A model generated the notes under the pieces. It ran no database searches and was not told the origin of the DNA. It worked only from the letters and a program-made list of their open reading frames with translations. Made by a program: the position numbers and the translations under genes. Shown here piece by piece: positions 5,361 through 55,915 of a stretch of DNA of 64,000 bases. Source of the DNA: Candidatus Bathyarchaeota archaeon (GTDB lineage: Archaea > Thermoproteota > Bathyarchaeia > Bathyarchaeales > Bathycorpusculaceae); NCBI GenBank assembly GCA_963772455.1, contig CAVYXJ010000012.1, forward strand, positions 64,001-128,000, in the 5' to 3' direction. The first letter of the stretch is position 1; the number at the start of each line of letters is the position of its first letter.

Positions 5361-6881
5361 TTATATCGATGGTATTAACGAAGATAGTTGTTGCGATGCA
5401 GGATGAATTAGTTGAAGGACTAAGTCTGGGAATAAGCCTAAGATAAAGATTGCAGCGACGAGTATGAAGACTGGGATGAGTATTCGATAGGATTCTTTTA
5501 TACGAGTTTCATCCGTGGCTTTCTTTCCATACATGGTGTTCATTAGTCTGAAGATGTAAGCTGTTTGTAGTACGCTAGTTAAGACTCCTATTATTGCTAA
5601 CCAGCTCAGGTTTGCTTGCAGTGCAGCGGTGAAGACGAGGTATTTGCCTATGAATCCCCCAAGTGGTGGGACACCAGCGAATGATAAGCCCGCAATTACT
5701 AAAGCTATACTTACCAAGGGTGCTTTCTTGCCGAATCCAGCGAAGTCTTTGAGAGTTTTTATGCCGTAACGGTTTATGATGCCTATTGTCATGAAGGCTA
5801 AAGCAGTGGTTAATCCTCCGATGAGGAAGAAGTAAAGGTTGCCTTCGAGACCAAGAGATTTAATGCTTGTTATAGCCACAAGGTTGTAGCCAACATCTGC
5901 AACACAGATGTATGCGATTAAACGTTTCACATCATTTTGAATTAAGGCAAAGATGTTTCCAACTACCATCGTGATTGCTGCGAGGATAGCTAACATGAGG
6001 GTCCAATCTAAAACTTGGTTTGGACCCGTTGGAATTATTATAAAGAGAAGTATTCGGATAACGATGTAATAGCTGCCTTGGTCAACTAATGCCGAGAGGA
6101 ATGCAGCTGAAGGTGCTGGAGCTGCGGTGTATGCATCTGGTAGCCAAAAGTGGAATGGAACAATTGCTGCTTCAATAGCGTATCCAGCTGCAACGAAGAC
6201 GAATGCTATTATGAGCAAGTTCATGTTAGATGCCACATTTGTGGCGTTCAAAGCTTCTCGGACTGCTGTGTAATTTAAGCTGCCTGTTAAGCCGTAAATG
6301 ATGGACATGCCAAATAATACGAATGCTGATGCGATGATGACCATTACTAAGAATTTCAGGGTTGCGTTGAGGCTAAAAGCGTTTTTGCGATACATCATCA
6401 GGAATGCTGCAGATGCGGTTGCTGCTTCCCAGAATATGAAGAATGTTAAGAGGTCGCCTGAAAGAACTGCACCAAGTAAGGCTGCTGTTAGGATGAGCAT
6501 TATAGCAAAGTATCGATCTGATGGACGCTCGTTTGAGTCAACGAAAAATACGCTGTAAACTATGACTACAGCGCTGATTCCAATAATAATTATTGCCATG
6601 TAAATTGAAATGGCGTCTATCAGGAAGGAGCTTGAAACTGCCGAAGATACACTTCCGTCGAGTGCTAAATTTAGCGGAAGTGGATTGGCAGTACTATAAT
6701 AGGTTAATGCCAAGTTAGCGACGGTTGCGCCAGCGATCAAGAAGACAATTAAGAACCAGCCTAATGTGTAGGCGGTCTTGTGGTTTTGGTGTTTTCTAAT
6801 TATCTTGAATACTGGAATGGTCAATAAAGCTGCGATAACAAGAGTAAATATCGGCAATATTACATCTAATATTTGTACCAT
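5361..6881 (-). CDS. NuoN/FpoN-like antiporter subunit of the hydrogenase complex
   Basis: Highly hydrophobic; FIFWE, PFHFWLPDAY, KRLIAY, AGVPPLGGFIGK; last gene of the operon. Confidence 0.88.
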   Translation of the reverse strand: MVQILDVILPIFTLVIAALLTIPVFKIIRKHQNHKTAYTLGWFLIVFLIAGATVANLALTYYSTANPLPLNLALDGSVSSAVSSSFLIDAISIYMAIIIIGISAVVIVYSVFFVDSNERPSDRYFAIMLILTAALLGAVLSGDLLTFFIFWEAATASAAFLMMYRKNAFSLNATLKFLVMVIIASAFVLFGMSIIYGLTGSLNYTAVREALNATNVASNMNLLIIAFVFVAAGYAIEAAIVPFHFWLPDAYTAAPAPSAAFLSALVDQGSYYIVIRILLFIIIPTGPNQVLDWTLMLAILAAITMVVGNIFALIQNDVKRLIAYICVADVGYNLVAITSIKSLGLEGNLYFFLIGGLTTALAFMTIGIINRYGIKTLKDFAGFGKKAPLVSIALVIAGLSFAGVPPLGGFIGKYLVFTAALQANLSWLAIIGVLTSVLQTAYIFRLMNTMYGKKATDETRIKESYRILIPVFILVAAIFILGLFPDLVLQLIHPASQQLSSLIPSI

Positions 6882-52922: not shown

Positions 52923-53489
52923 ATGAGTCAATCAACAATTGAAAATAAGAATTTAGATATCGCAACATTAGCCGGTGGCTGTTTCTGGTGTACCGAAGCG
53001 GCATTTAGCATCATAAAGGGTGTTGAAAGAATAGAACCTGGATACACAGGCGGCAATATTGATAACCCAACATATGAGCAAGTTTCAACAGGAACAACCG
53101 GTCATGCAGAGGCTGCACAAATTTTCTTTGATCCTAAAGTGATTAGTTACCGTGAGATTTTGGAGATATTCTTCACCATGCATGACCCCACAACGCTCAA
53201 TCGCCAAGGAGCAGACATTGGAACACAATACCGCTCAGCCATCTTTTATAGCACCCCAGAACAAAGAACCACTGCAGAAAAACTAATTGAAGAATTTACC
53301 AAGGAAGAAATCTGGAACAAACCAATCGTAACAAAAGTTGAACCCCTAAAAGTGTTCTATAACGCAGAAACTTATCACAAAGATTACTTCAAAAAACACC
53401 CAAAAGAACCCTATTGCCAGGCTGTTATTGCCCCGAAAATCGCGAAGATACAAGCTCATTTTATCGATAAAATAAAGGTTCCTTTATGA
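52923..53489 (+). CDS. msrA: Peptide methionine sulfoxide reductase A
   Basis: GGCFWC, GHAE, HDPT, QYRSAIF, AETYH. Confidence 0.95.
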   Translation: MSQSTIENKNLDIATLAGGCFWCTEAAFSIIKGVERIEPGYTGGNIDNPTYEQVSTGTTGHAEAAQIFFDPKVISYREILEIFFTMHDPTTLNRQGADIGTQYRSAIFYSTPEQRTTAEKLIEEFTKEEIWNKPIVTKVEPLKVFYNAETYHKDYFKKHPKEPYCQAVIAPKIAKIQAHFIDKIKVPL

Positions 53490-54056
53490 CAACCCAAACT
53501 GGAATAAGCAGTGCAGATAAGGTTTTGAGGGCGATTGAAGCGGCTTCTGAGAAGAATTTTCTGCCAATCATAGGACCACACAAGGGCAAGTTTTTGGAGG
53601 AGGAAATTCGGAAAGCCAAACCCAAACACGTGTTAGAAGTAGGCACATTGATTGGTTACTCAACGATTCTCATGGGCAAAGAAATGGAAAAAAAATCTGA
53701 GATTATAACCATTGAAATCCACCGTGATGAAGCAGAGTTAGCAGGAAAAAACATCGTTCAAGCAAATATTCCGCCAAATGTCAAGATTGTCACAGGTGAC
53801 GCTTTAGAAGTGATTCCCACTTTGGAGGGGACAGTTTGATTTTGCATTCATCGATGCCGAGAAAAATGAATATTTCCAATACCTTAAGTTAGTTGAGGAT
53901 AAACTTCAGAGTGGCTCAGTTGTTTTTGCGGATAACGCGGGAGTTTTTGCAGATCAGATGGGTGACTACTTGGAGTATGTTCGCAACTCTGGCAAATACA
54001 GTAGCCGTTACATTCAAGTTGGCGGAGACGGAGTAGAAATAAGCATTAAAATATAG
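53486..54056 (+). CDS. Class I O-methyltransferase; +1 frameshift near 53830
   Basis: LEVGTLIGYS, GDALEVI; after the shift FDFAFIDAEK...ADN. Confidence 0.85.
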
Positions 54057-54111: not shown

Positions 54112-54456
54112 ATGGTGAATCTTTTGGTTTTAGCCAGAATGAGTGTTTGGCATTTTAAGGAAGGCAAAAGCGAAAAAGGTTTTTCTGAACTAGATTTGTT
54201 ACTAAATACTTTGGCACATCAAACTGAGGGTTTTCGCGGCGCCATTTCATTGCTCGATGTAGACGACCCAAACGAGGTAACAATCCTAACTTTATGGATA
54301 GATGAAGAGGCGTTACAAAAATCTGAAAAAGGTGTTTTTGCTCAAGCTATAAAAAGAGTCGAAGATTCAATTGAAAGCCCTCCAAAAATTAAGAATTACC
54401 GAGTATTTTCAACAGAACTATTTCAACGTTCACAGTGGCCGTTTCGTTGGGCTTAA
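54112..54456 (+). CDS. ABM (antibiotic biosynthesis monooxygenase-like) ferredoxin-fold protein
   Basis: WHFKEGK...EGFRG...LTLWIDEEA. Confidence 0.7.
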   Translation: MVNLLVLARMSVWHFKEGKSEKGFSELDLLLNTLAHQTEGFRGAISLLDVDDPNEVTILTLWIDEEALQKSEKGVFAQAIKRVEDSIESPPKIKNYRVFSTELFQRSQWPFRWA

Positions 54457-54574
54457 CAATTCAAGCTAAGACTGATAAAAAAAACGATTCCTGTAAAAAG
54501 GCAAATAAATCAACTTTGTAATTTTTTTTCTTTTTAACCCAAAGTTTTAATGACTGATGGGCTGTGTCTTGTTC

Positions 54575-54693
54575 TGGGTGGGCGATGACGACTCTGGCCC
54601 CGAAGACGTAAGGATGATGAGGATCTTGAGTGTGGATAAGCATTTATGATAACTTTAAAAGTTGCATAAGAAGAGCTTACAAGAGCCCACCTA
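54575..54693 (+). ncRNA. Putative box C/D-like guide sRNA
   Basis: TATA-like TTTTAA at 54545; terminal stem TGGGTGGGC/GCCCACCTA; C-like boxes ATGACGA (54585) and ATGATGA (54614); guide GGATCTTGAGT complementary to tRNA-Leu(CAA) ACUCAAGAUCC. Confidence 0.65.
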
Positions 54694-54846
54694 CTGAAAG
54701 ACCAAAAGAATAAACTCTTAGTCTTTCCAAGCAGTTTTGGGGTTAAGACTAATTGGGGCTAATTGGGAAACTCTTTTTTTGATTTAGATTTAAAAAGAAA
54801 AACAAAACAAACGTTTGGACAATTCTCTTTCTGCCTAAATGGACGG

Positions 54847-55417: not shown

Positions 55418-55915
55418 TTAAGTAATTTTTTCTACAACTTTTTGTATATCTTCATAACTCGGCGCTGTATTTGAATTATTTGAAATCCATTTGTAACGCA
55501 CAACACCTTTTCCATCAAGAATGAAGATAGAACGTTTTACAATCGGGTAACAACCCGTTCCAAAGCAACATTCATTATCATCGCAAGGTGAGAATTGCAA
55601 TCCATATTTTTCAAATGCTTCGTGGTTTTTATCGCTTAGAACGGGGAATGGTAGCCTATTTTTTTCGGCAAAACGTTTACTGGTGAAGGGTGCAGTCAGA
55701 TCTATTCCAATTACTTGTGCCTTTAAATCAACCATTCGAGACATTGAATCTCGAAACTCACAAACCTCTTTAGTGCACGTCATTGTGAAGGCGCCAACAA
55801 AGAAAGCTAATACTACTTTTTTACCCAGAAAATCCTTTAGGCTTATTTGGTTCATGTGTTCATCTGGGAGAGTGAAATCCGGTGCTTGGTCTCCAACTTT
55901 TATTTCGGGTGACAT
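55418..55915 (-). CDS. Peroxiredoxin (BCP/PrxQ type)
   Basis: [33 protein letters not shown]. Confidence 0.9.

Follow-up and report, generated by a model that had tools for sequence, protein, structure and literature searches.

Wobble-base guide RNAs and the Bathyarchaeia locus

The closest described counterpart of the RNA gene studied here is sR47 of Pyrococcus abyssi, a box C/D small RNA (sRNA) whose D guide was shown in vitro to direct 2'-O-methylation of the wobble base C34 (yielding Cm34) in tRNA-Leu(CAA) (PMC3413156). Pyrococcus sRNAs are also listed for C34 or U34 of the tRNAs for Leu (CAA or UAA anticodon), Met and Trp (PMC7994747), the wobble-base sRNAs of Pyrococcus likewise appear in a review (PMC7668247), and the passages on wobble-position guides in PMC6009581 and PMC7994747 assign them a single tRNA target. 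Our literature search linked Bathyarchae* with neither fibrillarin nor sRNAs, an unrelated genome survey aside. We analyzed a 64,000-nucleotide (nt) stretch (hereafter, the window) of the genome of a Candidatus Bathyarchaeota archaeon (assembly GCA_963772455.1, contig CAVYXJ010000012.1, positions 64,001 to 128,000), in which positions 54575-54693 of the plus strand form a predicted, unannotated box C/D sRNA gene of ~119 nt.

The reading that we favor, with a probability of roughly 70%, is that this gene encodes a class-conserved C/D sRNA with its own promoter, whose D guide would direct Cm34 formation in tRNA-Leu(CAA) and whose box D is interrupted in the host genus and three sister genera. 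It draws on sequence, conservation, covariation, complementarity and the presence of protein genes. The sRNA would be transcribed from its own promoter; L7Ae would bind the terminal kink-turn (K-turn) and the internal D'/C' kink-loop (K-loop), and Nop5 and fibrillarin would then join, as in other archaeal small ribonucleoproteins (sRNPs). The 12-nt D guide would pair with positions 31-41 of tRNA-Leu(CAA), whose intron-containing precursor in the genus presents the same first 10 nt, and since the wobble base C34 lies at N+5 (five counted from the nucleotide after the guide), we propose that it is 2'-O-methylated. The pyrimidine-G dinucleotide (YG) next to the guide would keep its pairing with C3b and G4b of box C, and the GA for the sheared pairs would come after a 37-72-nt stretch with a protruding hairpin; the ruler from box D to the guide would be preserved because YG stays paired with C3b and G4b beside the guide. 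The genes for Nop5 and fibrillarin are adjacent in the source genome (G000; contig C13, 159311-160964), which also contains two L7Ae-family genes. The elements of the locus are as follows.

54545-54552 (+), TATA-like promoter box TTTTAATG, with TTTTAA at 54545-54550, ~30 nt 5' of the first stem base
54575-54583 (+), terminal (C) stem, 5' strand TGGGTGGGC, pairing with 54685-54693; 9 base pairs (bp) including one G.U
54584-54591 (+), K-turn bulge GAU (54584-54586) and box C AUGACGA (54585-54591); G54587 and A54588 are placed in the tandem sheared pairs, C54589 is 3b and G54590 is 4b
54592-54602 (+), D' guide CUCUGGCCCCG (DNA CTCTGGCCCCG), 11 nt
54603-54606 (+), box D' variant AAGA; the genus has NAGA and other families CUGA
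54607-54613 (+), D'-C' linker (loop of the K-loop), 7 nt, variable in sequence and length in the genus alignment
54614-54620 (+), box C' AUGAUGA; GAUGAU nearly invariant, last two positions variable
54621-54632 (+), D guide GGAUCUUGAGUG (DNA GGATCTTGAGTG); 54621-54631 pair with C41-A31 of spliced tRNA-Leu(CAA), G54628 lying opposite C34
54633-54634 (+), UG, putative first half of a split box D (4n, 3n), pairing with G54590 and C54589
54633-54636 (+), TGGA of the first-pass annotation, directly 3' of the D guide
54635-54682 (+), lineage-specific insertion: hairpin 54637-54679 (base UAAGC/GCUUA), short flanks and invariant AA at 54681-54682
54683-54684 (+), GA, putative second half of box D (2n, 1n), in sheared pairs with A54588 and G54587; reads AAGA together with 54681-54682
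54685-54693 (+), terminal stem, 3' strand GCCCACCTA, partner of 54575-54583
54608-54612 and 54676-54680 (+), GTAAG/CTTAC, candidate inner stem, present in the sequence check

The first-pass annotation was a reading of the window's letters, and every element that it had listed here was present when checked against the sequence. It had proposed an unannotated box C/D-type RNA behind a TATA-like box at 54545-54550, with a 9-bp terminal stem, a 3-nt bulge and GA/GA in K-turn geometry, and had named sR47 as the Cm34 precedent. All of this stands: the promoter box is there, the stem covaries in both the genus and the order, the GAU bulge is followed by G54587.A54684 and A54588.G54683, Rfam searched at gathering scores returns nothing at the locus, and the precedent agrees with the account in PMC3413156.

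Compared with sR47 as described, the window RNA is likewise a C/D sRNA with a guide upstream of box D, directed at the same target nucleotide in the same context (GACUCAAGAUCC); its D guide complements the tRNA-Leu(CAA) anticodon loop and places C34 at N+5. Unlike sR47, it belongs to Thermoproteota-related Bathyarchaeia rather than Euryarchaeota, it measures 119 nt versus ~60 nt, and it has AUGACGA as box C, AAGA as box D' and a hairpin-interrupted box D. The archaeal consensus is RUGAUGA for box C and CUGA for box D, from which the window RNA departs by one change in box C and by a box D that reads UG...AAGA. With canonical archaeal C/D sRNAs, represented by RF00095 (snoPyro_CD), the sR families and the Pyrobaculum set described by Lui et al. 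2018 (PMC6009581), it shares the order C-guide-D'-loop-C'-guide-D, the terminal K-turn, the internal K-loop (AAGA, 7 nt, AUGAUGA), a D' guide of 11 nt, a D guide that would be 12 nt if box D starts at U54633, and the N+5 rule. It differs from them in that 3b.3n is C-G instead of U.U, in the extra nucleotides that the family has between 3n and 2n (0, 1 or 3, or 37-72 nt in the whole D region), in a score under the Rfam gathering threshold and in an orphan D' guide that is conserved across the order.

A class-wide family of C/D sRNAs

The region 54560-54705 was searched with BLAST against 60 relatives, 36 from the same genus and 24 from eleven other families of the order. The core of the RNA (54575-54636) was matched at E <= 1e-12 in 30 of the 36 same-genus genomes and at E <= 1e-4 in 18 of the 24 others. 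A covariance model (R1), built from an alignment of 18 order-level copies (A2), matches 125 of 151 sampled genomes of the class at E <= 0.01, including 84 of the 95 high-quality ones, and finds one copy in the source genome. The RNAalifold structure used for R1, with 6 pairs near the 5' end, carries no meaning, and R1 therefore functions as a sequence model. By these matches, the predicted sRNA family is class-wide in Bathyarchaeia, and its pattern of elements goes well beyond what chance would produce.

Box C and the bulge are invariant in 19/19 genus sequences, the first bulge base excepted, and the box C pattern [GA]ATGAC[GA] is kept across the class. RNAalifold recovers all nine pairs of the terminal stem in the 19 genus sequences, two of them with changes on both sides; one-sided changes occur as well, and compensatory variants occur in the order (GGTTGAC/GTCAACC and GGTTGGC/GCCAACC). 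Relatives that lack the insertion are ordinary C/D sRNAs of ~70 nt; between the two strands of the stem they have, in order, box C, a guide of 11 nt, D', a small hairpin or short loop, C', a guide of 12 nt and box D. Some families have the full set of consensus boxes, with GAUGAUGA as C and CUGA as both D' and D, and the box at the position of 54603-54606 is NAGA in the genus, AAGA in four sister genera of the family and CUGA elsewhere. As homologues of other families carry GAUGAUGA and CUGA, the box deviations are derived within a true C/D family, of which the window RNA is by this comparison a derived member. Canonical-size relatives match the generic Pyrococcus C/D model of Rfam over its full length with up to 31 bits (E = 6e-4; gathering score 45). 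The window RNA itself has only weak, sub-threshold matches to the Rfam C/D models (10-14 bits, E 0.5-5), and beyond these generic models no Rfam family was matched at E <= 10.

The D guide and tRNA-Leu(CAA)

In the source genome, the gene for tRNA-Leu(CAA) was located with a T-arm scan at contig C7, 56836-56986. Two introns interrupt it, the first following the D arm and the second at 37/38, and for this reason it was called neither by ARAGORN (45 tRNAs) nor by the Rfam tRNA model (44 matches). A search of the unspliced genome for the exact complement of the guide returned only the antisense strand of the sRNA locus itself, as did a search for the complement of the D-guide 11-mer in two complete genomes of the genus. 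Spliced, the anticodon arm reads AAGGA-CUCAAGA-UCCUU, and the guide GGAUCUUGAGU (54621-54631) is a perfect 11-nt complement of ACUCAAGAUCC, positions 31-41. The earlier proposals of a guide for tRNA-Leu(CAA) and of a D+5 count that lands on C34 are both supported in this way, the count starting at the first nucleotide past the guide.

Among 47 stable RNAs of the source genome (8,309 nt), only spliced tRNA-Leu(CAA) scores at least 9.5 of 11; with shuffled guides, 12 of 5000 reach an 11-bp match in the same set. The target stretch, ACUCAAGAUC(C), is invariant in 28/28 genus tRNA-Leu(CAA) loci with an anticodon (two of the 30 loci are cut by contig ends and were left out) and is identical in 11 order-level genomes from other families. 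No variation was seen in the guide core GAUCUUGAGU within the genus, in all 18 order-level sequences of A2 or in the class-level sequences parsed; its flanks vary. Where relatives have a consensus CUGA immediately behind the 12-nt guide, C34 is the partner of the fifth base upstream of box D. Taken from complementarity and conservation, C34 of tRNA-Leu(CAA) is a well supported candidate target of the D guide. The tRNA-Leu(UAA) of the source genome would pair with one G.U located exactly at position 34, which makes it a less likely second substrate.

The intron of archaeal pre-tRNA-Trp carries a C/D guide for Cm34 and Um39. The window RNA resembles it as a predicted C/D guide for the wobble C34 of an intron-containing tRNA; unlike it, the tRNA-Leu guide would act in trans, since it is encoded separately, on another contig, behind a promoter of its own. 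In the source genome, the tRNA-Trp intron (contig C13, 108169-108308) holds GAUGACGA followed by UCUGGAG, its C box showing the unusual C at 3b that the window RNA also has, and presumably represents a classical intron-borne C/D guide for the tRNA-Trp anticodon loop.

Two further tRNA genes were noted along the way. The tRNA-Leu(UAA) gene (contig C10, ~435030-435160, with a copy at contig C17, ~5400-5560) has an intron near position 26 and is uncalled by both tRNA finders, and the 'tRNA-Thr(cgt) with intron' of ARAGORN at contig C5, 12224-12336, resembles an intron-containing tRNA-Leu(CAG).

An insertion in the box D region

The unusual feature of the window RNA appears to be a lineage-specific hairpin splitting box D. 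In 23/23 genus genomes examined and in three sister genera, 37-72 nt lie between the guide and the 3' stem; the insertion is absent from genera g22, g23, g25 and g29 of the same family, and one locus of the genus, L007, has a degenerate 3' stem. Within the genus, the inserted sequence can hardly be aligned and differs in length. Each insertion forms one closed hairpin that opens 0-8 nt after YG and ends 0-5 nt before AAGA, with a fold z-score below -2 in 15/19 genus sequences (median -3.3). The AU-rich hairpin of the window (54637-54679) has z = -2.8 against 200 shuffles. RNAalifold found no consensus structure for the insertion in the genus alignment because the alignment is poor there, and single-sequence folds were used instead. 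On either side of the insertion, YG directly follows the guide in 20/20 genus loci and AAGAG is invariant in 19/19 genus sequences.

To describe box D across the family, 75 of 100 loci were parsed automatically. GA stands right before the 3' stem in all 75, as the parse required. In 19 loci the D region has 4 nt (YGGA, CUGA, UAGA and similar); 22 loci have 5 nt, 4 have 7 nt and 30 have more than 8 nt. The 5-nt forms are always CG-N-GA and the 7-nt forms CG-NNN-GA, so that CG opposite C3b-G4b opens the region in 26/26. Box C position 4b is paired with the first base after the guide in 72/75 loci (45/45 short and 27/30 long forms), and in the short forms the 4b-4n pair is G-C in 35, A-U in 7 and G.U in 3, a covariation from G-C to A-U. 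The second base pairs with 3b in 65/75 (37/45 short and 28/30 long forms). Since a contiguous GNGA in the 5-nt forms would make 4b.4n always G.G, a split box is the simplest reading. The comparison suggests that box D is divided as YG...GA, with 4n and 3n beside the guide, 2n and 1n beside the stem, and the extra nucleotides between 3n and 2n. A bolder proposal, which we hold tentatively and put at slightly less than even odds, is that the box D of a working sRNP can be split, with anything from 1 nt to a 70-nt hairpin extruded in between, forming a 'three-way' K-turn that keeps the N+5 ruler, and that Bathyarchaeia expanded this site repeatedly; the hairpin might then have taken on a function of its own, a C-box-like island being retained in 13/19 genus sequences. 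Under this division the D guide is 12 nt long, with box D starting at U54633; a contiguous box D would leave 60 nt from C' to AAGA, compared to 11 nt for the D' guide. Guides of archaeal C/D sRNAs measure 10-12 nt.

The arrangement can be compared with the complex k-turns and k-junctions described by the Lilley laboratory (PMC5061560, PMC10573300), which likewise have noncontiguous key nucleotides or an extra helix on the non-bulged strand. In k-junctions, as described in PMC10573300, the third helix is located between 1n and the C helix, opposite the bulge; of the two k-junctions tested, neither was folded by L7Ae. Unlike there, the C stem, the bulge and both G.A pairs of the window RNA are contiguous and the extra helix is on the far side, between 2n and 3n. 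An identity with k-junctions was rejected: GA runs straight into the C stem, and the helix is inserted 5' of GA, which is the wrong side of the G.A pairs by the descriptions in PMC10573300 and PMC5061560.

Insertions of another kind occupy the same place in L066 (G051), L193 (G171), L192 (G052) and L196 (G126), where the order is guide, hairpin, CAAGA(A/U)UG, CGUGA and stem. In G052, CAAGAUU can pair with GAUCUUG of the guide itself, which might mask the guide. In L069 (G044), the module of C' box and D guide is tandemly duplicated within one sRNA (AAAUCUUGAGUG, CGAUCUUGAGUG).

Such variety bears on an alternative that we consider unlikely, namely that the sRNA binds the anticodon arm of (pre-)tRNA-Leu(CAA) and the insertion uncouples the guide from box D. 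The RNA would then methylate U33 or A35 (by flank count) or nothing; without methylation, it could be an RNA chaperone or a mask of the anticodon loop during splicing of the 37/38 intron. Insertions or duplications between guide and box D arose several times (g1 and its sisters, G051/G171, G052, G126, G044), suggesting that the linkage between the two is not tightly constrained, and the guide of G052 can pair with the downstream CAAGAUU. A contiguous AAGA as box D is 48 nt away from the guide, and reading the 5-nt D regions as contiguous GNGA puts N+5 on U33. The guide spans the exon junction, and in the genus it also has a 10-nt match to the intron-containing precursor. On the other side, the genus shows no change in boxes C, D' and C' or in the GA, which is what one expects of a working sRNP, and the YG/CG pairing together with the 4b-4n covariation holds the canonical 12-nt register. 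The hairpin closes within a few bases of both YG and AAGA, and the relatives with consensus CUGA put N+5 on C34.

A second alternative is the nested layout proposed by the first-pass annotation, or a tandem one, with extra box pairs; the RNP would then be larger, with L7Ae bound at three sites and perhaps one guide more. Either an inner unit would be closed by GTAAG/CTTAC, or a third K-motif would form between the post-guide YGRA and AUGAUAA of the insertion. We regard both forms as improbable. A C-box-like island, [AG]UGA[UC][AG]A (AUGAUAA at 54645-54651 in the window), is kept 9-12 nt after YGNN in 13/19 genus insertions; the insertions of G007 and G010 resemble the first half of their own RNA (5 and 3 of 300 shuffles are as good), hinting at internal duplication; and G044 has a clear duplicate of the C'-guide module. 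However, the inner stem is private to the source genome (1/19 genus sequences), which leaves the nested reading unsupported, GA occupies positions 3-4 of YGNN in only 2/19 and is absent in 7, the island is missing in 6/19, and the sequence past it is unconserved across the genus. Self-similarity is not significant in 17/19, and internal duplication was rejected as the origin of the insertion, the similarity to the first half being nominally significant in only 2/19.

Several parts of the earlier layout are accordingly redistributed. ATGATGA, read as a perfect C box, is present and is the ordinary C' box rather than the C box of an inner unit. TGGA, read as D', is better seen as a remnant of the ancestral D box, of which the UG (as YG) is conserved in the genus and the GA is not; the ordinary D' box is AAGA at 54603-54606. 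The terminal stem and boxes C, D' and C' are conserved in relatives as anticipated, but the inner stem and the full TGGA tetramer are not. The double size of ~120 nt, which had prompted the idea of a new guide architecture, is explained by a lineage-specific insertion in an otherwise canonical ~70-nt sRNA.

The insertion could also mark a decaying gene that was inactivated and is now a relic, an option to which the non-consensus sequence of both D-type boxes, the odd size and the weak Rfam score would point. We consider it very improbable: 19-23 species-level genomes of the genus keep the promoter, the two stems, every box and the two guides unchanged or with compensating changes, whereas the sequence of the insertion drifts freely, the insertion retains its hairpin fold, and the same form is kept in three sister genera.

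Promoter, expression and weighing of the evidence

A TATA-like hexamer is located at -22 to -32 from the start of the stem in 40/40 homologous loci (20 from the genus and 20 from the order), and its position places the start at ~54575; the sRNA is thus predicted to have its own promoter. In two soil metatranscriptome runs, contigs of relatives' copies were found, covering the conserved core only at a depth of 2-5. Two further RNA runs that were searched contained no sRNA contigs.

Several observations weigh against a functional Cm34 guide with a split box D. The metatranscriptome contigs are shallow and one of them begins upstream of the TATA box, so that they are no proof of transcription (DNA carry-over or read-through is possible). 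The window RNA scores 13.5 bits (E 4.8) on snoPyro_CD against the gathering score of 45, its whole fold is not unusually stable (z = -1.49; 16/200 shuffles as good), and neither D-type box is the consensus CUGA. As the target is invariant, guide and target show no compensatory change; some families mismatch the guide base opposite C41, leaving 10 bp, and the Y after the guide could alternatively pair with G29 of the tRNA. With regard to box D, 25 of the 100 loci failed the parse, and in G003, G026 and G028 YG can pair into the base of the hairpin instead. Finally, if AAGA alone is box D, the guide is 48 nt away and the N+5 rule is inapplicable.

If the Cm34 assignment holds, a trans-acting C/D sRNA guiding this modification of tRNA-Leu(CAA), known in Pyrococcus, would also be used in a distant lineage, and Bathyarchaeia, an abundant uncultured archaeal class, gain a first concrete and testable candidate for RNA-guided tRNA modification. 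The series of D regions of 4, 5, 7 and then 37-72 nt represents a natural experiment on how much the non-bulged strand of a K-turn tolerates. If the split box is real, it would add a so far undescribed structural class to the box C/D K-turns, although non-canonical K-motifs of a comparable kind might be among those tabulated by Lui et al. 2018, and it would explain why such RNAs escape covariance models. A caution for annotation follows from the locus as well: the sRNA escapes Rfam gathering scores and its two-intron target tRNA escapes both ARAGORN and the Rfam tRNA model.

The D' guide

The core of the D' guide, UCUGGCCCC, is invariant in the genus, kept in most of the order and different in more distant families. 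The first-pass annotation had suggested matching both guides to the tRNAs and rRNAs of the genome; the D guide found tRNA-Leu(CAA) in this way and the D' guide found no significant target, nor did genome, rRNA and stable-RNA searches return a convincing one. An exact and one-mismatch genome search gave the sRNA locus itself and sites inside open reading frames (ORFs) only. The best rRNA site, 23S 1435-1443 (GGGGCCAGG), was rejected: 434 of 2000 shuffled guides match rRNA as well. In G046, the same site faces a D'-guide variant with an A-C mismatch, i.e. the site does not follow the variant; 23S is unassembled in 9/10 other genomes queried. In two complete genomes, GGGGYCAGA occurs at the level of a reversed-pattern control, the sRNA antisense aside; nearly all of these sites fall within long open frames, and no recognizable RNA gene contains one. 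Two non-coding near-matches in the source genome have no Rfam family. In Pyrobaculum, tRNA-targeting sRNAs usually have one working and one orphan guide, according to the passages on them in PMC6009581 and PMC7994747.

Among the tRNA-Leu(CAA) loci of the genus (L029-L058), nine (L045-48, L051-54 and L058) have in the 37/38 intron a same-sense copy of the D' guide, GUCUGGCCCCGAA, identical over 10-13 nt. The intron of the type found in the source genome instead holds a same-sense copy of the anticodon region.

Genomic surroundings

The sRNA gene sits in an intergenic gap, flanked on one side by an ABM-domain ORF (54112-54456); on the other side, the next ORF with a Pfam annotation is a minus-strand peroxiredoxin gene (55418-55915). 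A minus-strand ORF at 54461-54643 was rejected as coding, given that the insertions do not vary in steps of whole codons (their lengths are no multiples of three) and that only boxes and guides show conservation. A consensus CUGA is present at 54695-54698, two bases past the terminal stem; it was not seen in the genus relatives compared and is behind a weak Rfam match to snR52 (20.6 bits, E 3.5). Further upstream, a plus-strand ORF of 117 amino acids (53486-53839) aligns only to positions 19-112 of the 204-position O-methyltransferase profile PF01596 and may be a truncated or frameshifted gene.

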